This document shows positions 5,378 through 59,677 of a stretch of DNA of 64,000 nt, piece after piece; within the stretch, counting starts at the first letter, position 1; the number at the start of each line of letters is the position of its first letter. The notes beneath the pieces are model-generated. The model did no database searches and was not told the origin of the DNA. It saw only the letters and a program-made list of their open reading frames with translations. The position numbers and the translations under genes are program-made. Source of the DNA: Acidobacteriota bacterium (lineage in GTDB: Bacteria; Acidobacteriota; Thermoanaerobaculia; Gp7-AA8); the NCBI GenBank assembly GCA_003223645.1, contig QHVT01000007.1:106531-170530 (forward strand), written 5' to 3'.

Positions 5378-5396
5378 GGGGCGGGATCATATGCGC

Positions 5397-5507
5397 AGAG
5401 GCTCACAGGCTCAAAGGCGCATGGGCTCAAAGGCGCAGAGGCTCAAAGGCTCATGGGCGCATAGCGGTTTCTCTCTGAGCCTATGCGCCTGTGAGCCTAT
5501 GCGCCTG
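5397..5507. repeat. octamer tandem array (GGCKCANN x8) followed by inverted octamers (TGAGCCTA/TGCGCCTG x2 each) in divergent promoter region of STAS gene and response-regulator operon
   Basis: ggctcaca ggctcaaa ggcgcatg ggctcaaa ggcgcaga ggctcaaa ggctcatg ggcgcata ... tgagccta tgcgcctg tgagccta tgcgcctg. Confidence 0.8.
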
Positions 5508-5547: not shown

Positions 5548-6206
5548 TGCGCAGGAAAGTTCTCCTCGTCGAAGACGACCCGAAGATTCGCGGGACGGTC
5601 GAGTTGTACCTGCAGCGCGAGGGCTACGACGTGGCGATTGCGGATGACGGCGTGCGCGCGCTGGAAGTCGCGCGTGATGTGAAGCCGCATCTCGTCTTGC
5701 TCGATCTGATGTTGCCGCGGATGGATGGACTCGAAGTCTGTCGCGCGCTGCGCGCGAACGGCGACGCGGCGATCATCATGGTGACGGCGCGGTCGACCGA
5801 GGACGACAAGCTGACGGGACTCGACCTCGGCGCGGACGACTATGTGACCAAACCGTTCAGTCCCCGCGAGCTGATGGCGCGCATTCGCGCGGTGCTGCGG
5901 CGCGTTGCGGACGATGACGTGATCGAAGTGAGCGGGATGGTGATCGATCGAGCGCAACGCGAGATCCTCGTGGGCGGCGAAGCGATCGGCGTGACGCCGA
6001 CGGAGTATCGCCTGCTGGAGACGCTCGCGCGCGCGGCGGGGCGGACGTTCACGCGGCAGGAGCTGGTCGAGCGCGCGCTCGGCGAGGACTACGACGGGCT
6101 CGATCGCACGGTCGACGTCCACATCATGAATCTGCGCCGCAAGCTGGGCGATGCCGGCAAGGCGATCGTCACCGTCTTCGGCGTCGGCTACCGGTTCGCG
6201 AAATGA
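5548..6206 (+). CDS. OmpR-family response regulator (REC + winged-helix); start uncertain (GTG ~5548, or ATG 5494 inside repeat array)
   Basis: KVLLVEDDPKIRG...LDLMLPRMDGLEV...DDYVTKPFSPREL...TVFGVGYRF; ATGA overlap with downstream kinase. Confidence 0.85.
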
Positions 6207-7474
6207 TCCTGCGCTCGCTTCGCTGGCGTCTCGCGATCGCGATGGCGCTGATCATCGCCGCGGTCTTCGCGGCGGCGGGCGTGTTCTCGAGCCTCACCGT
6301 CAGGCGCGAGTTCGATCAGTTTCTCGTCACGCAGCGAAAGAGCGACATGCGACCCGCCGCGCGCGTCGTCTTCAACGCGCGCGGCGAGATCGTCGAGCGC
6401 TTTCCGCCGGAGTTATCGCAGTTCGACATCCACCGCGACGCGGACGGCACGCTGCATCTCACGCGTCGCAACGGCGGAGGCGCCGAGTCGCTCGTGGTGA
6501 AGACGAGGCCGCTGCGGATCGGAGATGCGAGCGTGTACTTTCTCCCGCGGCCCCAGACGCACGACGCCGTTTTCAAGACGAGCGTGAATCGATCGCTCAT
6601 CGCCGGAGTCGCGATCGCCGCGCTGCTCGCGATCGCGGTGATGATGACGCTGTTTCGCCGCGTGTTCGCGCCCGTCGAAGAGCTGACGCGGGGCGCGCGT
6701 GCGCTCGCCGATGGAAAGCTCGATGCGCGCGTCGACGTGCGGGGACGCGACGAAGTCGCGGAGCTGGCGACGGCGTTCAACGGCATGGCCGAGGCGCTGG
6801 AGCGGAACGAGAAGGCGCGGAGAAACATGGTGAGCGACGTCGCGCATGAATTGCGCACGCCGCTCACGAACATCCGCGCGCAGATCGAGGCCGTGCAGGA
6901 CGGCGTGATGGTCGCGGATGAGAAGTGGCTCGCGTCGATCGAGGAAGACGCGGCGCTGCTCGCGCGGCTCGTCGACGACCTGCAGCAGCTCTCGCTCGCC
7001 GAGGCGGGGCAGTTGCGATTGGAGATCGAAGAGATCGAGATCGCGGAGCTCGTGGAGCGTGCGGTGAGCGGACTCGATGCGCGTGTAGAGGAGAGCGGGC
7101 GTCCCGCCCGCCCCCGGGAGGCGGGCAAGATGCCCGCGCTCCTCCACGATGTCCCGCAAGGTTTGATCGTGCGCGTCGACGCGCAGCGGATGGTGCAGGT
7201 GCTGCGCAATCTGCTCGTGAACGCGATCGCGCATGCGAAGTCGACGGTCGAGATTCGCGCGACGGCGAACGAGATTCGCGTCATCGACGACGGTCCCGGC
7301 GTGCCGCCCGAGCACGCGGAAAAAATCTTCGATCGCTTCTATCGCGCCGATGCCTCGCGCTCGCGCGCAACCGGCGGCACAGGCCTCGGCCTCGCGATCG
7401 CAAAAGAGCTCGTCGAACTGCACGGCGGAAAGATTTGGTATGAAAGGCCGACGTTCGTGATCCGCTTGCCATAG
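6203..7474 (+). CDS. sensor histidine kinase (TM-HAMP-HisKA-HATPase_c) carrying an in-frame palindromic-repeat insertion
   Basis: AHELRTPLTNI H-box, NLLVNAIAHA N-box, DDGPGVPPE, GGTGLGLAIAKELVELHGG; residues ESGRPARPREAGKMPALL encoded by repeat 7089-7145. Confidence 0.85.
   Translation: MILRSLRWRLAIAMALIIAAVFAAAGVFSSLTVRREFDQFLVTQRKSDMRPAARVVFNARGEIVERFPPELSQFDIHRDADGTLHLTRRNGGGAESLVVKTRPLRIGDASVYFLPRPQTHDAVFKTSVNRSLIAGVAIAALLAIAVMMTLFRRVFAPVEELTRGARALADGKLDARVDVRGRDEVAELATAFNGMAEALERNEKARRNMVSDVAHELRTPLTNIRAQIEAVQDGVMVADEKWLASIEEDAALLARLVDDLQQLSLAEAGQLRLEIEEIEIAELVERAVSGLDARVEESGRPARPREAGKMPALLHDVPQGLIVRVDAQRMVQVLRNLLVNAIAHAKSTVEIRATANEIRVIDDGPGVPPEHAEKIFDRFYRADASRSRATGGTGLGLAIAKELVELHGGKIWYERPTFVIRLP
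7089..7145. repeat. REP/MITE-like palindromic element family A, copy 1 (inside histidine kinase CDS)
   Basis: aggagagcgggcgtcccgcccgcc-cccgggag-gcgggcaagatgcccgcgctcctc; further copies 45045-45095 (partial), 54908-54950 (partial), 59578-59635 (full). Confidence 0.8.
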
Positions 7475-7588: not shown

Positions 7589-8293
7589 ATGAATCTCATT
7601 CTTCTTTTCGAGGACGACTTTGTCTCCGACGACGAAGTGCGGCTCAGCGGCCGCCGGCTCGAGCACGTGATGAATGTGCATCGCGCAAACGCCGGCGACG
7701 AATTAAAGGTCGGCGTGTGCGGCGGCCGCATTGGAAGCGGTATAGTCACGCGACTCGATGACGCGCTCGAAATGCGCGTCACGCTCGACCGCGATCCACC
7801 GCCGCCCATCCCGCTGACGCTCATCCTCGCGCTGCCGCGTCCGAAAGTGCTCAACCGCGTGATCGCATCCGCGACGTCGCTCGGCGTGAAGCGCATCCAT
7901 CTCGTCAACGCCTGGCGCGTCGAGAAGAGTTACTGGAAGTCGCCGAAGCTCTCGCACGAGAACCTCCTCTTGCAACGAACGCTGGGGCTCGAACAGGCGA
8001 AAGACACGATCCTGCCGGACATTTCGTTGCACCGCCTCTTCCGTCCGTTCGTCGAAAACGAACTGCCATCGATCGCGAACGGCTCGCTCGCGCTCGTCGC
8101 GCATCCGCACGCGCAGGCCGAATGTCCGCGCGCCGTCGAAGGCGCGGTCATGCTCGCGATCGGCCCCGAGGGAGGATTCATCGCGGAAGAAATCGCGTCG
8201 CTCGAGAGAATCGGATTTCAGGCGGTCAGCATCGGCGCGCGCGTGTTGCGCGTGGAGACGGCGGTGGCGGCGTTGATCGGGAGGCTGTATTGA
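7589..8293 (+). CDS. rsmE: 16S rRNA (uracil1498-N3)-methyltransferase RsmE
   Basis: 234 aa; LALPRPKVLNRVIASATSLGV, C-terminal AIGPEGGFIAEE motif characteristic of RsmE/SPOUT. Confidence 0.75.
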   Translation: MNLILLFEDDFVSDDEVRLSGRRLEHVMNVHRANAGDELKVGVCGGRIGSGIVTRLDDALEMRVTLDRDPPPPIPLTLILALPRPKVLNRVIASATSLGVKRIHLVNAWRVEKSYWKSPKLSHENLLLQRTLGLEQAKDTILPDISLHRLFRPFVENELPSIANGSLALVAHPHAQAECPRAVEGAVMLAIGPEGGFIAEEIASLERIGFQAVSIGARVLRVETAVAALIGRLY

Positions 8294-8302
8294 CGCGCTT
8301 TT

Positions 8303-8364
8303 GGTGTGGGGCAGGCTTTCCAGCCTGCCTCCCGGGGCACAGGCTGGAAAGCCTGTGCCACACC
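8303..8364. repeat. palindromic element family C, copy 1; copy 2 at 33206-33265 flanked by 20-bp direct repeats
   Basis: ggtgtggggcaggctttccagcctgcc-tcccgggg-cacaggctggaaagcctgtgccacacc; shares CCCGGGRG centre with family A. Confidence 0.8.
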
Positions 8365-8377
8365 AGCGCGGCCTATA

Positions 8378-8893
8378 ATGCGCGCGCCCATGCAACGGCC
8401 CCAGGTCCTCTTCCTCGTCAAATTCTTCGTCATCCTCATCGCCGCGTATCTGCTGATCGCGTGGAATCCCGTGAACGACAACGTCATCGTTCCGTTCACC
8501 GCGTGGATCGCGCGGACGTCGGGATGGCTGCTGAACCTGATGGGGCAGGGCGTCACGATGAACGGCACAATCATCGCGTCATCGAAATTCGCGGTGAATA
8601 TCAACAACGGCTGCAACGGCGTGGAGGCGATGCTGATCCTGCTCGCGTCGATCGGCGCATTTCCCGCTCCGATCAAGTCGCGCGGGATCGGTCTCCTTCT
8701 CGGCGCGCTCGCGATTCAGGTGCTGAACGCGGTCCGCATCATCACGCTCTTTCTCATCGGCGCGCATTACCCGAAGTACTTCGACTCTTTTCACACCGCG
8801 GTCTGGCAGGTCATCATCATCCTCGCCGCGATCGTTTTCTTTTTGATCTGGAGCAGCCGCGTTGCCCGCACTCGATTGGCGACTAGTAGTTAA
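8378..8893 (+). CDS. exosortase/archaeosortase-family-like polytopic membrane protein (putative)
   Basis: Multi-TM; NINNGCNGVEAM (Cys motif resembling exosortase active-site ACSG) and LNAVRIITLFL (N..R motif); track ORF starts 8306 inside a REP element, first ATG at 8378. Confidence 0.4.
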   Translation: MRAPMQRPQVLFLVKFFVILIAAYLLIAWNPVNDNVIVPFTAWIARTSGWLLNLMGQGVTMNGTIIASSKFAVNINNGCNGVEAMLILLASIGAFPAPIKSRGIGLLLGALAIQVLNAVRIITLFLIGAHYPKYFDSFHTAVWQVIIILAAIVFFLIWSSRVARTRLATSS

Positions 8894-10382: not shown

Positions 10383-10825
10383 AGCTGCGCGTCGCGACCG
10401 CGGACGACGCGCGTTGGATCAACGAGCGCTACGCCGAGGTGCGATTCCTCCCGTCCGATCTCTCGCACGAAGTCATCGTGATCGCGTCGATCGACGACGA
10501 GCCCGCAGGCCTCGGACGCATCGTCGACGTCGACGAACACTCGTGCGAGCTGGGAGGCATGCTCGTGTTCGAGCGGTTCCGCGGCCGCGGCGTCGCGCGC
10601 GCGATCATCGACGAGCTCCTCCGCCACGCGCGCGGACGCGACGTGTACTGCATCCCGTTCGCGGAGTTGGAAGCGCTCTACGCAAGCGCGGGATTCACGC
10701 GCGCAAGCGAAGCGCCGCGCGAGGTGCGGGAGAAGTTCGAATGGTGTCAGCGGACGTATGAGAAGCCGGTGATCCTCACCGTCATCCTGAGGCGCAAAGA
10801 CGCCGAAGGATCTCAGGATACGTAG
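10379..10825 (+). CDS. GNAT-family N-acetyltransferase
   Basis: GLGRIVDVDEHSCELGGMLVFERFRGRGVARAIIDELL acetyl-CoA-binding R/Q-x-x-G-x-G/A motif; GTG start overlapping upstream stop (GTGA). Confidence 0.7.
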   Translation: MKLRVATADDARWINERYAEVRFLPSDLSHEVIVIASIDDEPAGLGRIVDVDEHSCELGGMLVFERFRGRGVARAIIDELLRHARGRDVYCIPFAELEALYASAGFTRASEAPREVREKFEWCQRTYEKPVILTVILRRKDAEGSQDT

Positions 10826-10857
10826 CTTGAGATCCTTCGCCGTCTGCGCGGCTCAGG
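10783..10857. terminator. ~31-bp imperfect inverted repeat between convergent genes; putative bidirectional terminator hairpin
   Basis: cctgaggcgcaaagacgccgaaggatctcag ... cttgagatccttcgccgtctgcgcggctcagg; spans GNAT stop (10825) and thioesterase stop (10868); no clear U-tract. Confidence 0.4.
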
Positions 10858-10867
10858 ATGACGAGAG

Positions 10868-12765: not shown

Positions 12766-13341
12766 TCACCACAAAGTCCGCGCGTACTCCATCACGTCAG
12801 GAAAAAAGATCTCGAATCGTCGCTCCAGCTCCGCGCGCGCGTCGACGAGCAGATGCGTGGCCGGCGCGAGCTTCGGCTGTCGCGAGAACCTTCGCGAGAT
12901 GCCTCGCAGCGCGGTCTCGATGCCTTCGAGCGTGCGATACGACAGCAGCCACTGCTGATCGCGCATGCGCGGATAGACGACGCGCAGCATTCCGGGAAGC
13001 GTCGCCTCGTGCGGATCGAGCCGCGCGTACGTGCGCGAGAGAAAACTCTCGAGGGACTCGCCGGCGAACTCGTCGAAGCGAGAGGCGAGGAAGTGATCGA
13101 TGAAGATGTCGGCGATGACGCGTGCGTAGTGGCCGTGCTCGGCGGCGATGACGCGGCGGAAGTCGCCGACGTGCGGATGCGCGTCGGTGTACGCGTCGAT
13201 CTTTCGATGCTGCACGACGCCGGCGCGGATCGCGGGCGGCAGCTCGTCGCCGAGAACGCCCTTCACGAAATCGCCGGACAAGTTACCAATCAGCGAATCT
13301 GTGGACGAACCGGCCAGAAAAAGATGAGCCAGGTGATTCAC
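12766..13341 (-). CDS. acpH: acyl carrier protein phosphodiesterase AcpH
   Basis: MNHLAHLFLAG N-terminus and overall AcpH-like HD-related pattern (HRKIDAYTDAHPHV). Confidence 0.75.
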   Translation of the reverse strand: MNHLAHLFLAGSSTDSLIGNLSGDFVKGVLGDELPPAIRAGVVQHRKIDAYTDAHPHVGDFRRVIAAEHGHYARVIADIFIDHFLASRFDEFAGESLESFLSRTYARLDPHEATLPGMLRVVYPRMRDQQWLLSYRTLEGIETALRGISRRFSRQPKLAPATHLLVDARAELERRFEIFFPDVMEYARTLW

Positions 13342-13433
13342 CTGAAAATAATCTTGCCTTCATCCGGCTTTTCCTGCACAGTAATTTCGCGTCTCGTCCA
13401 AAGACGTCCAAAAATTTCAGGGGAGCGTCCCGG

Positions 13434-14693
13434 TTGCCACGAGTCTTCGTCCGATTTGCGGTCGTGCTCATCGTCGTGGTTGGTTCTCTCCGCGCACGCG
13501 CGGAAGTGATCTCGACTCACTGCAGTGAATCGGAGGTGGCGATCGACGCGACGCACAACGTCGCGCGGCTCGATCGCTGCGGCGCGGACGCCGAGGGCGA
13601 GCTGCTCTGGTACCTCGACCGCATCGACCAGATCGGCGGCGTGCTCGACGGAGCGTTCGACCGCACGAGCGGCGGCGCCGGCAGCGTCATCTACGTGATG
13701 GACACCGGCGTGATGGCGTCGCACGGCGAGTTCGCGCGCGCCGGCGGCAGCCGCGTGATCGCCGGCATCGACACGACGTCGTCGGTCGACATCGGACGCT
13801 CGCGCTGCACGAGCGGAAACAAGGCGACCGCGCCGTGCTTCGAAGGATTCGAAGAGTTGTCTTCGGCGTCGCACGGCACGAGCGTCGCGTCGATCGCGGC
13901 CGGCAACCACATCGGCGTCGCGCCCGGCGCGTCGATCGTGAGCGTGAGGATCATGAACGAGCGCGGTCTCGCCACGACGCGCACGTATCTCGACGGACTC
14001 GACGGCATCATCAAGCACGCATGGAATCCGTCGACGCCTGCGTTCCGCACCGCGGTCGTGAACATCAGCGGATGGGTGCTCGAGCGGCTGGCCGGCACGA
14101 GCCAGAGCGGTCCCGTCGTTTCGTACGCGGCGGTCGAGAAGAAAATCCGCGACATGATCGGCGGCGTCGACGCGAACGGCAATCCCGATCCGAACGGCAA
14201 GCGCTTCTTCTTCGTCGTCGCCGCGAACAACGTCGACGGCGGCTGCGGCTCCTCCGGCGTCATCGATCGTTTCCCCGCAACCCTCGGCACCGCGATCAAC
14301 GGCGTCATCACCGTCGGCGGCATGACCGCGAGCAACACCGCGTGGAACGGCTCCTGCCGCGGCGGCGTGGAAGTGCTCGCGCCCGCGCAGTCGATCTTTT
14401 CCGCGACCATCACCGGCCCGCAGGATTATCGCGGCCGCCGCCCATTCCAACGCTCCGGCACTTCATTCGCCGCGCCGATCATCTCCGGCATCGCCGCGCG
14501 TCTCCTCGGCGAGCGTCCCGACCTCACGCCGCAGCAGCTCGAGTCGTGGATCGAAGCGACGCCGTCACGCGTCGTGAATCCCGACGCGACGCTCGCGAAC
14601 GGCAAGGTCGCATACGTTCGCTCGATCGCGGCGCCGGTTGCGCCCGCGGCGCCGACGCTCGCGAGCGCCATGCGCGCGGCGCTCGAGCCGTAG
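13434..14693 (+). CDS. secreted subtilisin-like serine peptidase (S8 family)
   Basis: Signal peptide; catalytic triad motifs VIYVMDTGV (Asp), HGTSVASIAAG (His), GTSFAAPIISG (Ser). Confidence 0.85.
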   Translation: MPRVFVRFAVVLIVVVGSLRARAEVISTHCSESEVAIDATHNVARLDRCGADAEGELLWYLDRIDQIGGVLDGAFDRTSGGAGSVIYVMDTGVMASHGEFARAGGSRVIAGIDTTSSVDIGRSRCTSGNKATAPCFEGFEELSSASHGTSVASIAAGNHIGVAPGASIVSVRIMNERGLATTRTYLDGLDGIIKHAWNPSTPAFRTAVVNISGWVLERLAGTSQSGPVVSYAAVEKKIRDMIGGVDANGNPDPNGKRFFFVVAANNVDGGCGSSGVIDRFPATLGTAINGVITVGGMTASNTAWNGSCRGGVEVLAPAQSIFSATITGPQDYRGRRPFQRSGTSFAAPIISGIAARLLGERPDLTPQQLESWIEATPSRVVNPDATLANGKVAYVRSIAAPVAPAAPTLASAMRAALEP

Positions 14694-32382: not shown

Positions 32383-33183
32383 TTAAAACCACAAGCGAAT
32401 CGGTCTCACCCCTTCGCGCTCGAAGAACGGATCGAGTCTGCGCGCGAGCGCGGGCCAGTTGTGATGCGGGACTTGCGGGTAGAGGTGATGCTCGAGGTGG
32501 TAGAGGTGCTCGAGCGCGACGAGCGAGAGCACGCGGCCGCGGAAGAGTCTCGTCTGCTGCAACTCGGTGCCGCCGCGCGGATCGTGCGGAATGAAGGCGG
32601 TGACGAGCGGAAAGATCCAGCTGCCCGCGATCATCAGCGCGGCGTACGCGAACGGGAGCGGGGTGATCGGGATGATCGCGATGCAGATCCCGAGTCCGAT
32701 TACGACCGCCGACGCCTCGGCGATCATCCACGTGCGATCGCGTCCGTTCTTCTTCATCGCGAAGATCCAGAGCCGCGGCTGCAGCGTGATGCCTTCGAAC
32801 AGCGCGCGCACGAACGACATCCGCGACGCAGCGCCTTCGAGATCGTCCTCGGCGGGGAAGCGCGCGTGGTGATGAAGATGCACGGTGCGATAGGCGTGGC
32901 CGCTGCGGAACGAGAGCAGCTCAATCGCGCTGAGCAGCGACTCGTTCAGCCATCGCGGAATGCCGAGGTTGCGGTGAACGAGATCGTGCGAAATCGAGCC
33001 GTAGGTGAGGAAGCTGAGGAGCACCGGACACGCGAGCGCTGCGACGTACCACTGCCGCGACGCGAAGACGAAGAAGAGCGCGACGAGCGCGAACGGCGTG
33101 GCGAGCGTCAGCGCGAGGCGCCAGCGCGGAACGACCAGCAGGTCGCGTCCGATCTCATTCAGCGACGGCTGCATCGGCGTCAT
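32383..33183 (-). CDS. membrane fatty-acid desaturase family protein
   Basis: Three His boxes: HDLVHR, HLHHH, HLEHHLYP; multiple TM segments. Confidence 0.8.
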   Translation of the reverse strand: MTPMQPSLNEIGRDLLVVPRWRLALTLATPFALVALFFVFASRQWYVAALACPVLLSFLTYGSISHDLVHRNLGIPRWLNESLLSAIELLSFRSGHAYRTVHLHHHARFPAEDDLEGAASRMSFVRALFEGITLQPRLWIFAMKKNGRDRTWMIAEASAVVIGLGICIAIIPITPLPFAYAALMIAGSWIFPLVTAFIPHDPRGGTELQQTRLFRGRVLSLVALEHLYHLEHHLYPQVPHHNWPALARRLDPFFEREGVRPIRLWF

Positions 33184-33285
33184 TGTTAACCAAATCCCGT
33201 CTCATGGTGGTGTAGGACAGGCTTTCCAGCCTGTCCCCCCGGAGGCGGGCTGGAAAGCCCGCACTACGCCGGGGCTGTTAACCAA
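33184..33285. mobile_element. family C palindromic element bounded by exact 20-bp direct duplication TGTTAACCAAATCCCGTCTC (MITE-like insertion with target-site duplication)
   Basis: tgttaaccaaatcccgtctc at 33184-33203 and again at 33266-33285, bracketing the 60-bp palindrome in the desaturase / beta-lactamase-family divergent intergenic region. Confidence 0.6.
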
Positions 33286-33312
33286 ATCCCGTCTCGCGGG
33301 TTGAAACGACAT

Positions 33313-34980
33313 ATGAGACGGCTCCTCTTCCTTCTTTTTCTTGCGCGCGTCGTGTCCGCGGACGCGGCGTCATCGATCGACGAATACTTCACACGCCTGG
33401 CCGCGCACGGATTTTCCGGCGCGGTGCTGGTCGCGCGCGGCGAGGACGTATTGCTGCGCAAAGGCTACGGACTCGCCGACAAGAAGCGCGGCATCGTCAA
33501 TCGCAGCGACACGGCGTTCAACATCGCGTCGCTCGACAAGCAGTTCATCGCCGCCGGAATCCTGCGGCTCGAGGAGATGGGAAAGCTGCGCGTGAGCGAT
33601 CCGATCTCGCGCTTCTTCGACTTCATCCCCGACGACAAGAAGAACATCACGCTGCATCAGGTGCTGACGCACACGGCCGGCTTCAGCGACGAGTATTGGG
33701 ACGAGCATCCCGAGCTCACGCGCGCGGAGTTCATCCGCTGGGTCGTCACCGAGCGCAAGCTGCTTGCGCCGCCGGGAAAGGAGTGGTCGTACGCGAGCTT
33801 CGACTACTGGCTGCTCGAGGAAGTGATCGAGCGCGCGTCGGGAATGCCGTTCGAAGAGTTTCTGAATCGCGAGCTGTTCGCGCCGACGGGCATGCGCTTC
33901 ACCGGCTTCGCGATTCCGAAGTGGGACCGCGACAATGTTGCGCACACGAGTCTCTGGACGGTTCCGTCGTCGGCGCTGCCGGGCGAGATGAAGTTCGAGA
34001 ATCCGCTCGATCGTCCGGCCGCATGGCGCGTAATGCTGTCGACGCCGGAGGATTTGTATCGCTGGTATCTCGCGCTGCGCGCGGGACGCGTGCTCACGCC
34101 GGACTCGCGCAGGAGACTCTTCACGCCGGTGATGGAGAACTACGCGTACGGCTGGTACGTCGCGCCGACGATTCGCGGCACGAAGCTGATTCATCACGGC
34201 GGTGGCGGAAGCGGTGTCGGGACAGTCGTGACGTTCGACTGGTTCGTCGACGAAGACACGCTCGTCGTCATCACGAACAACTCGATCATGAGCGGCTTCG
34301 GCGCCGACTTCATCATCGCGGACGTCGAGGCGATGCTGTTCAGCGGCGCGGCGATGATGCCGCCGCCGTCGATCGCGCGCAAAGAGCCGGCGAGCGTCGG
34401 CGGCACGTATCGACTTCCGCGCGGCGGCACATTCGACGTCGTGCAAACGACAGGTCCGCTCGTCGCCGTGAGCCGCGACGCCGAAGCGATCTCCGCACTG
34501 CTCCTCGGCGGCACGGACGCCGGCAGTCTCTCGCAGGACACGCTCGCGCGAGACGTGCTCCTCGCGGCGAGCCGCGGCGAATTCGCGGCATTCGATGCCG
34601 TCAGCGCCGACGATCATCAATGGATCGCGTCCGTGTTCGAGCGCGCGAAAATGCATGGCGCGCTGCAGGACATCACGACGATGCACTATCGCTCCTTCAT
34701 CCGCGACGGCGTTCCCGAGCTGCAGTCGTTCGTGAAGCTGCGTTTCGAGAAAAGGGATTTGTATCTGCGCGTCATGCATCACGCATCGGGAAAAGTGCAG
34801 ATCGATCGTCTCAGTCCGCCCGAAGGAATCGAAGCGGCGCTCGCACCCTCGCCGCAAGGCGGCTACACGACCTGGGAGCCGCGCCTCGGCTCGTCGGTGC
34901 GCGTAGACTTCGCCGAGAAATCCGTCCGGCTGCAAGGGAGCGCCGGCACCGTGATCGCGTCCCGAGTCGCAAAGCCATGA
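33313..34980 (+). CDS. secreted serine hydrolase, beta-lactamase/PBP-like family, long C-terminal extension
   Basis: Signal peptide MRRLLFLLFLARVVSADAAS; S-x-x-K motif (SLDKQF); track ORF uses TTG at 33301. Confidence 0.8.
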   Translation: MRRLLFLLFLARVVSADAASSIDEYFTRLAAHGFSGAVLVARGEDVLLRKGYGLADKKRGIVNRSDTAFNIASLDKQFIAAGILRLEEMGKLRVSDPISRFFDFIPDDKKNITLHQVLTHTAGFSDEYWDEHPELTRAEFIRWVVTERKLLAPPGKEWSYASFDYWLLEEVIERASGMPFEEFLNRELFAPTGMRFTGFAIPKWDRDNVAHTSLWTVPSSALPGEMKFENPLDRPAAWRVMLSTPEDLYRWYLALRAGRVLTPDSRRRLFTPVMENYAYGWYVAPTIRGTKLIHHGGGGSGVGTVVTFDWFVDEDTLVVITNNSIMSGFGADFIIADVEAMLFSGAAMMPPPSIARKEPASVGGTYRLPRGGTFDVVQTTGPLVAVSRDAEAISALLLGGTDAGSLSQDTLARDVLLAASRGEFAAFDAVSADDHQWIASVFERAKMHGALQDITTMHYRSFIRDGVPELQSFVKLRFEKRDLYLRVMHHASGKVQIDRLSPPEGIEAALAPSPQGGYTTWEPRLGSSVRVDFAEKSVRLQGSAGTVIASRVAKP

Positions 34981-45039: not shown

Positions 45040-45092
45040 CGGTGATCGCGGAGCGAGACGCTCCGCGATGGCGGGCGGGACGCCCGCGCTCC

Positions 45093-46445
45093 TCAGGACA
45101 GTTTGGCTACAACCACCGTCACGTCATCGTCCTGCAGCTCGCTCCCGCGAAAACACTCGACGTCTTTGAGGATCGCGTCGCGCAGCGACTCCGCGCTGCC
45201 GTCGTGTTGTTGCACGAGCGCGGCGAGACGTTCGAGTCCGTACGTTTCACCCGCCTCGTTGCGCGTCTCGTAGACGCCGTCGCTGTGCAGCACGAAGACG
45301 TCGCCGGGGAGGAGGTCGATCGTGCGCTGCGGAATCGTGACTGGGAGGCGCACGCCGAGGGGCGGCGCGAAGAGATCGATCGATGCGACGGAGCCGTCGG
45401 CGCGGCGAAGGATGACGGGTGGATGTCCGGCGCTGGCGATGATCGCGCGACGTTTCGCGCGATCGAGCAGCACGACGGTGACGGTGACGAGCATGCGCCT
45501 GCGGCTCGTCTCCGCGACGAGATCGTGCAGGCGGCGCAACACCACGCCCGGATTGTCGAGCGCGTCGCGCAGCAGGGTGAATCCGCTGCGGATCGCGGAG
45601 AGTACGAGGCCGCTGGCCATTCCGTGTCCGGCGACGTCGCCGCAGACGAGGGCGACGCGATCGCCGTCGACGAAGTAGTCGTAGTAATCGCCGCCGACTT
45701 CCGTCGCCGGGATCGAGATCGCGGCGAGGTCGACCCAGTCGAGCGCCGGCGCGAACTCGGGGAGCATGCTGAGCTGCAGCTCGCGCGCGTAGCGCAGCTC
45801 GTCGCGCATGCGGATCTGCTCGCGCGCGCCGGTGCGGCGCTCGGTCCACTCCGATCGCAGCTGGCGGCGCAGACGCCACGCGCCCCACAGCTCGATCGCC
45901 AGCGCGATCGCGTTGATCACGCCGACGCCAACGTAGTAGCCGATGTCGTCGTCGCGCTTGAAGGGATTGCCGACGATCGACGGCATGAGCAGCGCGCCGC
46001 CCGCGATCACCGCGTGCAGCAGCACGTGCTCGGCGACGTGCATCCGGATCGCGACGACGATCCACGGAAACGCGAACGCCCAGCCCATCCAGTTCTGTCC
46101 CGTGCGCGCGTAGACGAGCAGCAGGACGTATTGCGTGATCGTGAACGAGACGACGGTCGCGGTGACGTGATTGCTCAGCCAGCGGCCCGCGAAGGAGGGA
46201 TGCGCGCGATACGAGTTGCGCACGACCCAGAACACGATCGCGATGAGCGCGAGATTCGCGGTGCCGAGGAGGACGTCGAAGATCGTGTTCGTGCGGGGAT
46301 GCGCGACGGTGTGAATGAACGCGACGATCGCGAAGATGATGAGGAAAATCTGGAGCCAGAAGCGGTTCCGTTGATCGAAGCGGCGGCGGACCACCATCTC
46401 GTCGGTGGTGCGCGCGATCTCGTCGAGGGTGTACGGCACGGTCAT
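45093..46445 (-). CDS. membrane-anchored PP2C-family (SpoIIE/RsbU-like) protein phosphatase
   Basis: N-terminal multi-TM region; EVGGDYYDYF, VCGDVAGHGMASGLV, LHSDGVYE, DDVTVVV PP2C metal-binding motifs. Confidence 0.8.
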   Translation of the reverse strand: MTVPYTLDEIARTTDEMVVRRRFDQRNRFWLQIFLIIFAIVAFIHTVAHPRTNTIFDVLLGTANLALIAIVFWVVRNSYRAHPSFAGRWLSNHVTATVVSFTITQYVLLLVYARTGQNWMGWAFAFPWIVVAIRMHVAEHVLLHAVIAGGALLMPSIVGNPFKRDDDIGYYVGVGVINAIALAIELWGAWRLRRQLRSEWTERRTGAREQIRMRDELRYARELQLSMLPEFAPALDWVDLAAISIPATEVGGDYYDYFVDGDRVALVCGDVAGHGMASGLVLSAIRSGFTLLRDALDNPGVVLRRLHDLVAETSRRRMLVTVTVVLLDRAKRRAIIASAGHPPVILRRADGSVASIDLFAPPLGVRLPVTIPQRTIDLLPGDVFVLHSDGVYETRNEAGETYGLERLAALVQQHDGSAESLRDAILKDVECFRGSELQDDDVTVVVAKLS

Positions 46446-51201: not shown

Positions 51202-51297
51202 CGTGTCATTCCGAGCCGCGCAGACGGCGAGGAATCTCCCGCCTCGCGAGCTGCAGGGGATTCCTCGCCGTCGTTGCGGCTCGGAATGACACGGTGA

Positions 51298-54033
51298 TTA
51301 CAGCTTCTCCGGATCTACCTTCGCGATCTCGCCGAGGTTCAACTCGCGAATCCCTGCCTCCACCTTCTTCAAATCGCCGACGATGATCCAAATCACTTCG
51401 TCGGGATGCACAACTTTTTTCGCGGCGTCGTTCAGATTCGTCTCGGTCAGCGCGCGGATGTTGTTCGCGTATTGGGCGTAGTACTCCTCGGGGCGGCCGG
51501 TGGTGAGCATGCCGATGGCGGCGGCGTTGAGCGAGCCGAGTGTCTCGTACGCGCCGGGGAGCCGCATCACCTGGCTGCGCATGATGCTCGTGAATTCTTC
51601 GCCCTCGATCGGGCGCGCGCCGGCGACGCCGGCGATTTCCTTTTGCACTTCGAGGATCGACTCTTTCGTCTTGTCGGTCTGCACCGGCGCGATCACGAGG
51701 AACGGGCGCGGTCCGCGCGTCGTGTTCAGCGCGCCGCTCGTTCCGTAGCTCCAGTGTTTGTCGAGGCGCAGGTTACGATTGAGGCGCGACGTCGACATGC
51801 CTCCGAAGTTGCGCAGCACGGTTTCAATCGCGAGGTCTTCCGGCAGTCCTCCCGCCTCGGAGACATGCGCCGCGACGACGACGGATTGCGGCGCGTCCGG
51901 CTTGTCGATGAGATACACCTTCTTGCCGGTCGAGCGCGGCACCGCGTCGATCTTCTTCGCCGGCGCCTGTCCCGATTTCCACGACGCGAATGCTTTCTCG
52001 AGCTCGGGCACGAGCTTCTCCATCGTGGTGTCGCCGACGACGACGAGCGTGCTGTTGTTCGGATGGAACCACGCGCGATGCCACGCGACGAGATCGCTGC
52101 GCGTCATCTTCGCGAGCGTCGACGCGTAGCCGGTGCCGGTGAACGGAGTGCCGTACGCGTGGTTCTCGCCGTACAGCAGCAGCGGCGCGATACGCAGTGC
52201 GGCGGTCTGCGGCTGCACCTGTTCCTGCTTGATGCGTGTGATGTGCTGTTGCCGCAGCAGCGACACCTGATCTTCGGGGAATGCCGGATGCAGAACGACG
52301 TCCGAGTAGATCGCGAGCGACGGACCGAGGTTCGTCGATAGCGCGGAGAGGGACACGAACGACAGATCGAGTGAGTTGCTGGTGAAGACCCGCGCGCCGA
52401 TCGCGTCGAGCTCGTCCTGAATCTTGAAAGCGTCGCGCGTATCGGTGCCTTCGTCGAGCACGTCCATCGCGAGACCCGCGAGTCCGGCAGTCTTCGCGCT
52501 GTCCGACGCCGAGCCCGCGTCGACGGTGAGCGTCGCGTTGACGAGCGGCACGTTGTGACGCTCCATCAGCATCACCTTGAGTCCGTTCGACAGCGTGGCG
52601 CGCTGCACTTTCGGGAACTTCACTTCGGGCGCGTCGCCGAGGATGGGGAGGGCTTTGCGATCGAGGCTCGTGCTGCCGGCGCTCAGTTGCGGGAACGGCT
52701 GCACGACCATCGTGTAGTGATTTGTGTCGAGCCACTGCTTCGCGGCCTTCGTCACTTCGGCCGGCGTCGCCGTCGCCATCGTCTGCAGGCGATCGAGGTA
52801 GTAGTTCGGATTGCCGCCGTAGGTCATGCTCTCCGCGAGGACGTCGGCACGGCCGCCGAATGCGCCGAGGCGCTCGGTGCCGCGAACGTAGGCGGCGAGA
52901 TTGCGCGACTGCGCGCGTTTCAGCTCCTCGTCGGTCGGACCGTTTTTTACGAGCTCCGCGACGACCGCGTCGATTTCTTTCTCCACTTCGGCCGGCCGCA
53001 CGCCCGGCTTCACCGTCGCCTGGATGATGAGACCACTCGCGATCTCGCCGTCGGAGATGAACGCGGCGACGTCGGTGGCGAGGTTCTTGTCGTAGATCAG
53101 CCGGCGATCGAGTCGCGCGCTCTTCGATCCGCTCAGCACATCGGCGATGAGCGACACGTATTGCAGCTGCAGGTCCTTCCACGCCGGCGCGTGGTAGAAG
53201 CGATAGACGCGAGCCTGCGGGACGCGGTCGAACATCGAGTCGCGCAGGTTGTGATCGAATTTCGGGATCCACGTTTCGGCTCGCGTGAGTGGCGGTCCGG
53301 GCGCGACGCCGTTAAAGTATTTCTTCACCACCTCGAGCGCGTGCTGCGGGGTGATGTCGCCGGAGAGGACGAGCACGCAGTTGTTCGGACCGTAGTAGGT
53401 CTTGTACCAGTCGCGCACGTCGTCGAGTTGCGCGGCGTTGAGGTCCTCCATGCTGCCGATCGTCGACCATGAATACGGATGCGAGTACGGGTAGACGATC
53501 TCGCTGATGCGATCGTAGACCTTGCCATACGGCTGGTTCTCGCCCTGCCGCTTCTCGTTCTGCACGACGCCGCGCTCGCGCTCGAGCATCTCCTTCGAGA
53601 TCTGTGCGGCGAGGAAGCCCATGCGATCGGCTTCGAGATAGAGCGTGCGTTCGAGCGCGGAGACCGGGACATCCTCGAAGAAATTCGTGCGATCGGTGTT
53701 GGTCGTGCCGTTGCGATTGTTCGCGCCGAGGTCGTCCATCGCCTCGCGAAAGCCGTGCGGATAGTTCTCGCTGCCGTTGAAGAAGAAGTGCTCGAACAAA
53801 TGCGCGAAGCCCGTCTTCCCGCGCTTCTCGTTGCGCGAGCCGACGTGATACCAGAGATTGACCGCGACGATCGGCACGCTGTGGTCCTCGTGCACGAGCA
53901 GCGTGAGCCCGTTGTCGAGCACGAACTTCTCATGCTTTATCTCAAACTGACTGCGGTTGAAGGAGGGCTTCGCCTCCGGAGCAGCGAGCGTCGGGAAGGC
54001 AAGCGTCAGCGCGAGAAAGGCCGCGAATTTCAT
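51298..54033 (-). CDS. secreted M16-family (pitrilysin-like) zinc peptidase, tandem M16 halves
   Basis: Signal peptide MKFAAFLALTLAFPTLA; inverted zinc motif HLFEHFFF (HxxEH); ~910 aa. Confidence 0.85.
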   Translation of the reverse strand: MKFAAFLALTLAFPTLAAPEAKPSFNRSQFEIKHEKFVLDNGLTLLVHEDHSVPIVAVNLWYHVGSRNEKRGKTGFAHLFEHFFFNGSENYPHGFREAMDDLGANNRNGTTNTDRTNFFEDVPVSALERTLYLEADRMGFLAAQISKEMLERERGVVQNEKRQGENQPYGKVYDRISEIVYPYSHPYSWSTIGSMEDLNAAQLDDVRDWYKTYYGPNNCVLVLSGDITPQHALEVVKKYFNGVAPGPPLTRAETWIPKFDHNLRDSMFDRVPQARVYRFYHAPAWKDLQLQYVSLIADVLSGSKSARLDRRLIYDKNLATDVAAFISDGEIASGLIIQATVKPGVRPAEVEKEIDAVVAELVKNGPTDEELKRAQSRNLAAYVRGTERLGAFGGRADVLAESMTYGGNPNYYLDRLQTMATATPAEVTKAAKQWLDTNHYTMVVQPFPQLSAGSTSLDRKALPILGDAPEVKFPKVQRATLSNGLKVMLMERHNVPLVNATLTVDAGSASDSAKTAGLAGLAMDVLDEGTDTRDAFKIQDELDAIGARVFTSNSLDLSFVSLSALSTNLGPSLAIYSDVVLHPAFPEDQVSLLRQQHITRIKQEQVQPQTAALRIAPLLLYGENHAYGTPFTGTGYASTLAKMTRSDLVAWHRAWFHPNNSTLVVVGDTTMEKLVPELEKAFASWKSGQAPAKKIDAVPRSTGKKVYLIDKPDAPQSVVVAAHVSEAGGLPEDLAIETVLRNFGGMSTSRLNRNLRLDKHWSYGTSGALNTTRGPRPFLVIAPVQTDKTKESILEVQKEIAGVAGARPIEGEEFTSIMRSQVMRLPGAYETLGSLNAAAIGMLTTGRPEEYYAQYANNIRALTETNLNDAAKKVVHPDEVIWIIVGDLKKVEAGIRELNLGEIAKVDPEKL

Positions 54034-54087
54034 GCGCGGCATTGTAGGGCGGGGACTTTGGATTGCGGTGACAACGTCACCGCTTTC

Positions 54088-54543: not shown

Positions 54544-54948
54544 GTCCGAATCCTCTCACAGCCCACAACGCGTACGCCGTATCCAGCAGCGCCACCATCG
54601 CCTCGATGCGCTCCTCCTGCGTCGCCGCGAGCGCATCCTCGACGTCCTGCCGGACGATCTCCTCCTCGGAGCGAACGAGCGGCATACGGCGAGACTTTGC
54701 GCGTTGATTCGTCATTTGTCCGCCGCGTACGCCAACCCGTCCGGCTCCGTCCCCGTCTCTACTTCTCCGGCGAAAAACGCCGCGGCGAATTTCATGCACG
54801 GCATTGTAGGGCGGGGGCTTTGGACTGCGGTGACAACGTCACCGCTTTTTTGATAGGGCTCCGTGCATGCTCTTGAAAGCGGCGGCGTAGCCGCCGCAGT
54901 CCAAAGGACCCGCCCGCCCCACGGGAGGCGGGCAGGATGCCCGCTCTC

Positions 54949-55734
54949 CTATGAGCTCGGGCGCGTGGTGAAGTAGCGTTTGAGCCACTTCGACAAGCCG
55001 TCGAGTCCGGGGAAGAGCACGCGCTCGGTGATGTTGGCCTGATCGAGTTTGTCGCGGATCTCCCACTTCAATGCCGCGGGGACGATGATGCGCCGGTGGG
55101 TGTCGTCGTGCTGTGCGAGGAGGTCTTCCAGTCGCAGGGAGGCGCTCGACGGCAATGAGAAGAGCGCGAACTGGTTGACGATGCGCTCGTCGAGCGACGG
55201 CGGCTCGAAGAAGAGGACGAAGTCTTCGCGCGCCAGCGCATCGAACGACTCGAGGGTCGTGGCAACGCTGTTCAACAAGTCGGTGGTAAAGATGTTGACG
55301 TCCTCGGCGTCGAGGACTTTGCGCAGCGGGCGGGGGAGGAGGTCGTTGGTCTTGCGATAGTCGACGCACCAGATCGTTGCGTCTTCGTTGAAGTGCGCGA
55401 GCTCGTTGGTCGCGAAGTGCAGCGCGACGTACGGCGAGTACGTCCAGTCGAGAAGCCGCGTCGGCAGTCCGTGATGTTTGGCGAGCGAGAGCCAGTTCCA
55501 CACGAAGTCGCCGTGGACGGCGTTGCGCGCCGCGTATTTGCGGAAGCTCGTGAGGAGGTGCCGTTCGTGCGCCACGAAGTTGCCGGTCTGCAGACTCGTG
55601 TCGAGTCCGTGGCTCGCACGCGGGGCTCCGCGAAACACGAAGTTCGAGCGATGGCGCGAGAGCGAGTCCTGCCAGGAATTGTCGAACAGGGCCTCCTGCA
55701 GCTCGATCCACGTCGATACGCGCGTCTCTCTCAC
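54949..55734 (-). CDS. FRG-domain protein; start uncertain (GTG 55734; track ORF extends to 56064 through antisense of neighbouring gene)
   Basis: NFVFRGAPRASHGL (FRG motif) and downstream WTYSPYVALHFA. Confidence 0.5.
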   Translation of the reverse strand: MRETRVSTWIELQEALFDNSWQDSLSRHRSNFVFRGAPRASHGLDTSLQTGNFVAHERHLLTSFRKYAARNAVHGDFVWNWLSLAKHHGLPTRLLDWTYSPYVALHFATNELAHFNEDATIWCVDYRKTNDLLPRPLRKVLDAEDVNIFTTDLLNSVATTLESFDALAREDFVLFFEPPSLDERIVNQFALFSLPSSASLRLEDLLAQHDDTHRRIIVPAALKWEIRDKLDQANITERVLFPGLDGLSKWLKRYFTTRPSS

Positions 55735-55810: not shown

Positions 55811-56749
55811 ATGCTCGAACGAATCCGGAACGCGGTGCGTGCGAGCGCAGATGAGAAACCTCTTCCGCGCAAGACGACCGAGGTGCGCTTCGACGGCCTC
55901 GGCCTCCAGGATCCGATCGAGCGCGCGCAGACGCACGAGCCCGCGCTGATCCTCCTCGAGGGCGACTTTCCGGGACAGGTGTTTCGCCTGCGGCAGGGAC
56001 GGCAGATCATCGGACGCCGACCGGAGTGCGACATCCGCCTGCGCGAGCGCGCGGTCAGCGGCATTCACGCGGAGGTCGTGCGTATGCGCGACACCGTCAC
56101 GATCAACGACCTCGCCAGCACCAACGGCACGCTCGTCAACGGCATGCGCATCCGCCATCCGGTTCCGCTGGTCGGCGGCAATCTGCTGAAGGTCGGCAAC
56201 TGCGTGTTCAAGTACGTCGACTCGCTGCTCGACGTCGAGTTCACCGAGGCGCTGCATTCGCGCGGCATCACCGACCAGCTCACCGGCGCTTACAACAAGG
56301 CCTACATCGTCGCGCGGCTCGCGTTTCTGATCGACACGGCCTCGGACACGAAGCCGATGAGTTTGATCACGTTCGACTTCGACAACTTCAAACAGGTGAA
56401 CGATCAGTTCGGACACGCGGCCGGCGACTACGTGCTGCGCGCGACGTCGTCGCTGATCGTCTCGCAGTTCGTGCGGCCGCAGGACGTGTTCGCGCGGACG
56501 GGCGGCGAAGAGTTCGTGATCGTGCTGCCGGAGACGCCGCTCGACGTCGCGACGAAAGTGGCGGAGCGCATCCGGCAGATGTTCGAAGAGAAGACGTTCG
56601 AGTTCGAGGGACAGGAGATCCGGCTCACGTCTTCGTTCGGCGTCTGCAGCCTGACGAGCGCGGTGGAACCGCCGGAGGCGCTGCTCGAGCGCGTCGACGA
56701 TCTGCTGTACCGCTCCAAGCGCGAAGGCCGCAATCGCGTGACGGCGTAG
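55811..56749 (+). CDS. FHA-domain-containing diguanylate cyclase (FHA + GGDEF)
   Basis: FHA core (QIIGRRPECDIRLRERAVSGIHAEV...TNGTLVNG); GGDEF domain with RTGGEEF active site and RxxD-like region. Confidence 0.8.
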   Translation: MLERIRNAVRASADEKPLPRKTTEVRFDGLGLQDPIERAQTHEPALILLEGDFPGQVFRLRQGRQIIGRRPECDIRLRERAVSGIHAEVVRMRDTVTINDLASTNGTLVNGMRIRHPVPLVGGNLLKVGNCVFKYVDSLLDVEFTEALHSRGITDQLTGAYNKAYIVARLAFLIDTASDTKPMSLITFDFDNFKQVNDQFGHAAGDYVLRATSSLIVSQFVRPQDVFARTGGEEFVIVLPETPLDVATKVAERIRQMFEEKTFEFEGQEIRLTSSFGVCSLTSAVEPPEALLERVDDLLYRSKREGRNRVTA

Positions 56750-56950
56750 CGCCTTCCTCGGTCACGCAGTTGCGCGGTCACTCGGTTGCGCGGGGAAGCA
56801 GCGCCGCGCAACCGAGCGACTACGCAACCGAGCAACCGGGTGAGGGCGTAGCGCCTTCCTCGGTTACGCAGTTGCGCGGTCACTCGGTTGCGCGGGGAAG
56901 CAGCGCCGGGCAACTGAGCGACTGCGCAACCGAGCAACCGGGTGAGGGCG
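56747..56950. repeat. 2 x 102-bp tandem direct repeat, each unit with internal dyads
   Basis: Unit agcgccttcctcggtcacgcagttgcgcggtcactcggttgcgcggggaagcagcgccgcgcaaccgagcgactacgcaaccgagcaaccgggtgagggcgt repeated with few mismatches; contains ctcggttgcgcgg...ccgcgcaaccgag 13-bp inverted repeat; fills the whole gap between convergent genes. Confidence 0.85.
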
Positions 56951-59549: not shown

Positions 59550-59677
59550 TGCGCGATGCCCGGATATCGATCGAAAAGAGGAGAGCGGGCATCCTGCCCG
59601 CCTTCCGCGGGCGGGCGGGACGCCCGCTCTCCTCGGTGCGGGGAGCAGGTGCCCCGTGTGATGCGAACATCTCATCA

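Follow-up and report, generated by a model that had tools for sequence, protein, structure and literature searches.

A REP doublet lies between copies of a long target duplication in an Acidobacteriota intergenic spacer that is empty in related lineages

Few repeats of bacterial genomes are as abundant as REPs and REPINs. The mechanism by which REPs are disseminated has been described as still to be elucidated (PMC8266576); it can be constrained by clean natural insertions, those in which the element is seen together with its two junctions and the corresponding empty site. In a stretch of 64 kb from an Acidobacteriota genome (the whole of the DNA analysed, hereafter the window), a palindrome is bracketed by two identical 20-mers between a fatty-acid desaturase-family gene and a divergent gene of the beta-lactamase fold. 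An earlier note, made from the letters of the window, had taken this arrangement as the trace of a recent, MITE-like transposition. It was asked whether the 20-mer is duplicated target DNA, what kind of element the palindrome is and by which route it could have arrived.

The 20-mer (TGTTAACCAAATCCCGTCTC) was found exactly twice in the window, on the + strand and without mismatch (33184-33203 and 33276-33295; Table 1). The repeat had rightly been called perfect and its first copy rightly placed, but the second had been set at 33266-33285, which is 10 too low and ends inside copy 2. A search that tolerated up to three mismatches gave no third site in the window, and none of 100 shuffled sequences contained any match. 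The gap of 72 nt between the two copies is made up of ATGG, a 64-nt palindrome and GGGC. The palindrome occupies 33208-33271, with the ends TGGTGTAG...CTACGCCG (complete sequence TGGTGTAGGACAGGCTTTCCAGCCTGTCCCCCCGGAGGCGGGCTGGAAAGCCCGCACTACGCCG). Its predicted fold has an energy of -46.9 kcal/mol, and z-scores relative to shuffled sequences were -5.0 for the + strand and -6.1 for the - strand. Read along the + strand, the order of the parts is cat (desaturase start codon), 20-mer, ATGG, palindrome, GGGC, 20-mer, GCGGGTTGAAACGACAT and ATG (33313). The duplication includes the start-proximal region of the desaturase gene, as had been proposed, with copy 1 abutting the start codon; the end of copy 2 is 17 nt from the ATG of the beta-lactamase-fold gene.

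Table 1. Positions of the repeat, the palindrome, the flanking genes and other repeats in the 64-kb window.
Feature	Position	Strand	Remarks
Fatty-acid desaturase-family gene, 266 aa	32383-33183	-	Pfam FA_desaturase 89.5 bits; ATG 33183-33181 touches copy 1
Direct repeat copy 1, TGTTAACCAAATCCCGTCTC	33184-33203	+	Adjoins desaturase start codon (cat 33181-33183); equals the single copy at empty sites L009 and L136-L143
ATGG, probable remainder of an original 24-bp duplication	33204-33207	+	Same four bases after the 20-mer at empty sites
Inserted 64-nt REP doublet (REPIN-type)	33208-33271	.	Fold, shared architecture, tags and compensatory stems, absence at nine orthologous loci
Doublet, left part			TGGT; GTAG tag 33212-33215; left hairpin 33215-33236 = GGACAGGCT-TTCC-AGCCTGTCC
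Doublet, inter-hairpin spacer CCCCGGAG	33237-33244		
Doublet, right part			Hairpin 33245-33262 (GCGGGCT-GGAA-AGCCCGC); CTAC tag 33264-33267; then GCCG
GGGC between element and copy 2; filler or donor flank	33272-33275	+	Outside palindrome
Direct repeat copy 2	33276-33295	+	Then GCGG (33296-33299), native spacer up to ATG 33313
Beta-lactamase-fold (serine hydrolase) gene, divergent from desaturase	33313-34980	+	Pfam Beta-lactamase 173.5 bits
Second family C copy, 64 nt, TGGTGTGG...CCACACCA	8302-8365	.	Between stop codon 8291-8293 and ATG 8391
Further palindromic repeat families	4190-4293, 10780-10863, 51202-51293, 54809-54951, 59578-59634, 45059-45094		
8-nt tandem repeat, AGGCTCAA-like	5383-5470		At least 7 units
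102-bp tandem duplication with internal inverted symmetry	56730-56933		
67-nt repeat pair	54020-54086 and 54782-54848		94% identical, 762 bp apart

The structure was recovered from several independent sources. Six contigs spanning the spacer, from six samples of separate projects (ENA, JGI), carry the 129-bp spacer with both 20-mers, identical in all. This base-for-base agreement argues that the structure is not an assembly artefact. The identical desaturase protein was present in 15 soil-metagenome contigs; NCBI entry PYQ29669.1 ('MAG: Acidobacteria bacterium') represents it too, its start having been called later, and homologs at greater distance carry the label Thermoanaerobaculia. Two short-read Logan contigs of the same locus (L007 and L008) stop inside the palindrome; metagenome contigs break at palindromic elements of this type, and the number of such elements in MAGs will be underestimated.

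Orthologous loci were collected using five variants taken from the 90% cluster of the desaturase protein. Nine loci from five related lineages (L009 and L136-L143; desaturase 89-94% identical) have the same two genes as divergent neighbours, separated by a 36-bp spacer that holds a single 20-mer and no palindrome. The empty site reads cat-TGTTAACCAAATCCCGTCTC-ATGGGTTGAAC(C/T/G)AGAC-ATG, with ACGGGTTGAACGAGGT in its second part in L009. This last locus belongs to the sister of the window lineage (desaturase protein 94% identical; nucleotide identity 92%), and the remaining empty lineages, which form an outgroup clade, are 89-91% identical both to the window and to L009. Since the sister is also empty, the empty state is ancestral. 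A single gain in the window lineage explains the data, whereas a deletion would need at least two events. Comparison of the filled and empty loci shows the insertion of a 64-nt REP doublet into the 36-bp spacer in the window lineage, represented by a soil Acidobacteriota MAG. The gain of 92 bp corresponds to the element, the four extra bases GGGC and 20 bp of target present a second time. These orthologous loci support the view that the 20-mer is the native target, duplicated on the arrival of the element. The earlier note had read the 20-mer in the same way, as a target-site duplication, and had proposed that relatives be searched for an empty site; such a site, with one 20-mer and no palindrome, is present in all five lineages, the sister included.

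The opposite reading, in which the 20-mer is part of the element, a regulatory motif that happens to occur twice or an artefact of assembly, is scarcely credible. The other family C copy of the window (8302-8365) lacks the 20-mer, and the 20-mer stands alone at the orthologous site, so that the two do not form one unit at either place. A motif that is invariant among relatives is probably functional, which suits the second version; against this, the relatives have exactly one copy of it, in the same place. The third version conflicts with the agreement of the six contigs.

The length of the duplication was estimated from the four bases that follow the 20-mer. They are ATGG at copy 1 and at eight of the nine empty loci (GTCTCATGGGTTGAAC), ACGG in L009 and GCGG after copy 2. 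The original duplication was probably 24 bp long, copy 2 having later been altered at two positions. A duplication of 20 bp, with an insert that starts with ATGG by chance, is possible; the probability of that coincidence is ~1/256, and for this reason 24 bp is favoured. About five positions in the 17 bases from copy 2 to the ATG differ from the relatives, so two changes in four bases are unsurprising. The GGGC at 33272-33275 is absent from the empty sites and does not occur beside the 8302-8365 copy. As to age, the transposition had been called recent on the strength of the perfect repeat. The 20-mer is, however, invariant in the relatives, and the identity of its two copies may therefore mean constraint rather than youth. 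As far as these alignments date it, the insertion is bounded only as having followed ~8% nucleotide divergence from the sister lineage.

By its architecture the palindrome is a pair of inverted hairpins with GT[AG]G tags, that is a REP doublet or REPIN, and a member of the GTAG-REP kind. The two copies of the window were compared for this purpose. The 8302-8365 copy is 86% complementary to the 33-kb copy, has the tags GTGG/CCAC and has neither the 20-mer nor any long flanking repeat. Local hairpins in both copies centre on the cores GGCTTTCCAGCC and GGCTGGAAAGCC; the bases of the stems differ and pairing is kept. In the 33-kb copy the stems are GGACAGGCT/AGCCTGTCC and GCGGGCT/AGCCCGC, and the pairing of a single long hairpin is broken, GACA standing opposite TGCG.

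One genome per species was then scanned for the two cores at a distance of 10-24 nt. Matches were obtained at at least 118 loci, and those listed came mostly from Planctomycetota, the others from Chloroflexota, Myxococcota, Verrucomicrobiota, Armatimonadota and proteobacterial MAGs. The pattern demanded a doublet, and the 121 external copies are thus doublets by selection; both window copies are doublets that were found independently of it. The consensus of the 121 external copies listed is GTAG-GTCA-GGCTTTCCAGCC-TGAC-(variable)-GTCA-GGCTGGAAAGCC-TGAC-CTAC. An outer tetranucleotide GTAG, GTGG or GTAC was present on the left in 93 and on the right in 96 of the 116 distinct copies listed (80-83%), and in the same copies a mean of 3.6-3.7 of the 4 variable stem positions were paired. 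Many compensatory stem variants, among them GTCA/TGAC, GGCA/TGCC and GACC/GGTC, occur in the copies listed. The local stems were still perfect on the left in 21 and on the right in 18 of the 33 listed doublets whose two hairpins are unlike. Two copies were seen in the window, both intergenic, and 3-6 loci per MAG among the matches listed (CAZGYE01, JACPPF01 and JAZGDL01). A scan of viral contigs gave two matches, both at the same locus and without the repeat. The whole window gave no match in Rfam 15 at gathering thresholds, and a full-text literature search with the 12-nt core GGCTTTCCAGCC and longer versions returned unrelated papers only, none of them on bacterial repeats.

Two further arrangements were observed among the copies. 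Many of those from Planctomycetota (L023, L046, L051, L055, L067, L097, L124 and L131) have the doublet nested in a longer inverted repeat, approximately TATTACCCCGGCACGAAAG ... CTTTCGTGCCGGGGTAATA, suggesting that they belong to a larger composite element. In L063 (160-380), L117 (~1990-2080) and L041 (~7660-7760) the REP unit (GGCAGGCTTTCCAGCC) recurs head to tail, as a tandem array or as partial tandem copies, in place of a simple doublet.

The inter-hairpin spacer is CCCCGGAG at 33 kb, TCCCGGGG in the 8302-8365 copy and CCCCGGGAG in one copy of family A, another palindromic family of the window. The statement that families A and C share a CCCGGGRG loop is true only in a loose sense, the other family A copies being different, and is weak as evidence. 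The further suggestion that this loop is a recognition site for a transposase found no support, the spacer being the variable part across genomes, and wholly variable where the element occurs in other phyla. Recognition determinants in the REP systems studied lie elsewhere, in the tag and the foot of the hairpin (PMC8266576).

The frequency of long duplications was determined with a flank test: for each of the 113 listed copies with clean flanks, 60 nt were taken from each side, and the longest stretch identical in both was recorded. Unrelated flank pairs gave a chance ceiling of 15 nt. A long abutting repeat was found at two of the 113 listed copies, namely the window copy, where the 20-nt repeat lies 8 nt from each tag, and locus L075 from a groundwater Planctomycetota MAG; the remaining 111 (~98%) had none. 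In L075 a perfect repeat of 42-45 bp directly abuts GTAGG...CCTAC, and the junctions overlap by 1-2 bases (GT with GTAG, C with CTAC). Two relatives of L075 (L225 and L226), in which the adjacent selenium-binding-protein gene is 90-91% identical, have a single diverged target of ~44 bp and lack the element. The inserted DNA is the complete doublet in both filled/empty pairs. A scan of 1.63 Mb for repeats of at least 12 nt around a palindrome, independent of family, gave the window copy and L075 as the only clean cases, and no long flanking direct repeat was found in it at the further palindromic families of the window. What the two pairs show is the insertion of a complete doublet with duplication of the flanking target, over a length that differs between events. 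Judged from these loci, a long duplication on insertion has occurred at least twice, in two phyla and with different lengths.

Several candidates for a common signal at the target were considered and rejected. Each boundary of the 20-bp repeat is preceded, at a distance of 2 nt, by CGTC (CGTCAT^TGTT and CGTCTC^ATGG; 33177-33183 and 33197-33203). CCCGTCT is found at one boundary in both events, in L075 at the right one; it is missing from the left one there, so that the agreement is possibly due to chance. As for a hairpin in the target, that at the empty site of the window is strong, but nothing comparable is conserved at the empty site of L075.

These observations can be explained as follows. 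Each strand would have been broken once, the two breaks lying at a distance of ~24 nt in the window and of 42-45 nt in L075; the element would have been joined between them, and filling-in of the single-stranded gaps would have duplicated the stretch between the breaks. Because the stagger differs and most copies have no duplication, the cuts do not seem to be set by a fixed transposase complex, and the breaks look independent of each other. More speculatively, a transposase of RAYT type (HUH/Y1) would normally paste hairpin elements of this sort into the single-stranded DNA of a replication fork and leave no duplication. Paste of this type without larger duplications fits the majority of copies. 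An occasional joining to the nascent strand beside a displaced flap or gap, the length of which would set that of the duplication, might then account for the minority; this step is speculative. Taken as a whole, insertion of a REP doublet between staggered single-strand breaks followed by fill-in, preferably in the RAYT-type flap or gap version, is considered the best explanation, with a confidence slightly better than even. Only two of the 113 listed copies have the repeat, and insertion with a long duplication is for that reason at best a minor pathway of the family. The more general proposal, that REPINs can integrate by a route which leaves long variable duplications (20-45 bp) at staggered breaks or at a replication gap or flap, and not by the IS200/IS605 paste, is made tentatively and is more doubtful than not.

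Host DNA repair is a serious rival, albeit an unlikely one. A spacer break with long overhangs could have been filled in and a REPIN, free or copied, captured by end joining, or a stalled nascent strand could have switched to a REPIN template at another place and returned 24 (or 42-45) nt upstream. The variable length of the duplication (20-24 versus 42-45 bp) and its rarity (2/113 listed copies), the four extra bases GGGC at one junction in the window and the overlaps of 1-2 bases at the L075 junctions speak for repair, although the extra bases and the overlaps fit transposition equally well. In both events, however, the inserted element is complete and its ends lie at the GTAG/CTAC tags or close to them, which is not what random capture or copying should give two times over, and there is no microhomology at either junction in the window. 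Strand switching driven by the palindrome itself was discarded, as it would yield inverted duplications, and those observed are direct.

A succession of steps was also considered, in which an insertion without duplication is followed by a tandem duplication of target and REPIN and then by loss of the second REPIN. Tandem clusters of the form flank-REPIN-flank are known in Pseudomonas fluorescens SBW25, where there are 16 of them (PMC3116915). The scheme would require three events, of which the last is an exact deletion, twice independently and with the same final layout, and the target-REPIN-target-REPIN intermediate was not seen in the six spacer-spanning contigs. It is very improbable. The tandem REPIN clusters resemble the present case in that the flank is repeated on both sides of a REPIN (PMC3116915, Figure S7 legend). 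They differ from it in that the REPIN is repeated there, whereas there is one REPIN here and the empty site shows the flank contiguous with the downstream DNA.

The preferred reading, insertion of a REP doublet at staggered breaks, has also to be weighed against a true MITE. Bacterial MITEs derived from DDE elements (e.g. Correia, ERIC) have short duplications of fixed length and IS-like terminal inverted repeats. The present insert is like them in being small, non-coding and palindromic, in having a direct target duplication and in lying beside gene starts. It is unlike them in its GTAG-tagged hairpins, in duplications of 20-24 and 42-45 bp and in the lack of any duplication at 98% of the listed copies. 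A MITE moved in trans by a DDE transposase recognising the inverted ends (TGGTGTAG.../...CTACACCA) and making long variable duplications would account for the inverted termini together with the direct target duplication. Long direct repeats of variable length are indeed formed by IS1634 and IS1549 (PMC2266710), IS4-related elements whose duplications likewise differ between events; these are kilobase-sized and encode a DDE transposase, in contrast to the 64-nt non-coding palindrome described here. No IS with such ends was noticed in an unsystematic look at the window and the collected loci, 111 of the 113 listed copies have no duplication, and what is conserved is typical of a REP, namely the GT[AG]G tag and a pair of hairpins each maintained on its own. 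A MITE of this kind is accordingly judged quite unlikely, if marginally less so than the stepwise scheme. The description as MITE-like was replaced by that of a REPIN-type doublet: no IS-type ends were noticed on this insert, and its duplication of 20-24 bp is far longer than those of MITEs.

A RAYT gene was sought with jackhmmer, seeded with E. coli RayT, in all six-frame ORFs of the window and the collected loci (1.6 Mb), as the earlier note had advised. There was no match in the window, which is a small part of the genome, nor in the 118 listed element-bearing loci. A regular expression for the RAYT C-terminal motif gave no credible match in the six-frame translations. The sole jackhmmer match was in a contig of a relative (L214, ~12780-13500; Pfam Y1_Tnp 36.5 bits, cut-off 23), where its neighbours are genes for a histidine kinase on one side and a response regulator on the other. 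The hairpins GCGGGCGTCTCGCCCGC, GGCGGACGAGACGTCCGC and GGCGGGCGAGACGCCCGC that flank it are like family A of the window and not like family C. RAYT-REP systems thus exist in this lineage.

RAYT, the presumed transposase of REPs, is related to the single-strand transposases of IS200/IS605, which are not known to produce larger target duplications (PMC2817692). Elements of the REP class are not expected to leave a long duplication as a footprint. The present element shares with the 'peel and paste' elements and RAYT/TnpA(REP) (PMC2817692, PMC8266576) the tag with its subterminal hairpin and the lack of duplication at most copies; it departs from IS200/IS605, for which no larger duplications are known (PMC2817692), in those of 20-24 and 42-45 bp. 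It is like REPINs and GTAG REP dimers (PMC3116915, PMC2817692, PMC3733652) in having two short GC-rich inverted hairpins, GT[AG]G heads and a short variable spacer, and in being foldable as two hairpins or as one long hairpin. It is unlike them in its length of 56-64 nt, as against 71 bp between the conserved ends of the SBW25 GI REPIN, and in that no cognate RAYT was linked to family C in the loci searched. The two copies with long target duplications are a further difference, none having been found described for REPs or REPINs in the literature examined. Excisions and tandem clusters, but no flanking duplication of single insertions, are described in the SBW25 REPIN paper (PMC3116915). The survey of GTAG REPs, in which Planctomycetes, Chloroflexi and Verrucomicrobia had already been recorded as carriers (PMC3733652), makes no mention of duplication. 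What appears to be new is the long variable target duplication with empty sites, which was not found described, and a core that is shared across several phyla. If the reading is true, the two filled/empty pairs, from two phyla, would be the first natural footprints found that constrain the spread of REPs. If such duplications are a regular minor outcome, they would point to integration at staggered breaks or replication gaps and provide a signature to search for in sister genomes.

For the host, the consequence is that an element can land in a shared spacer of 36 bp and both divergent genes keep their conserved start-proximal sequence. The two genes are now separated by an additional 92 bp with a very stable hairpin; owing to the long duplication, each retains its native, conserved sequence near the start. 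The 20-mer is invariant at all nine empty loci, against a difference of 7-12% in the coding DNA and variation at the spacer positions beside it, and because of this invariance it is probably functional. The start-codon region of the beta-lactamase-fold gene (ATGAGACGG) can pair, in a predicted hairpin, with CCGTCTC(AT) of the repeat. At the empty site, CCGTCTCAT, a part of the 20-mer, pairs with ATGAGACGG across this start codon. Such a hairpin may be a translational control element. No sigma-70-type promoter was predicted in this region.

Other repeats of the window were compared with the relatives as well. A family A palindrome (7086-7147, tags GTAG...CCAC) lies in frame in a histidine-kinase gene (ORF 6203-7474), between HisKA and HATPase_c. 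Five relatives lack ~17 aa at this spot, and a long flanking repeat is absent in the window. It was rejected as a second filled/empty pair, the relatives being 57-69% identical and the junctions not placeable. Metagenome relatives collected with the neighbouring gene of the 8302-8365 copy as seed (L144-L198; 62-84% identical) contained no family C copy in ~850 kb, and junctions were not definable there. The spacer after gene 7589-8293 (8294-8390), which carries the family C copy in the window, is 7 nt long in L144, L146 and L147 and has unrelated palindromes in L148, L169 and L188; in this comparison it looks like a hot spot for independent insertions. Among the further palindromic families, 10780-10863 and 51202-51293 form a pair with the arms GTCATCCTGAG/GTCATTCCGAG...GGATCT/GGAATCT.
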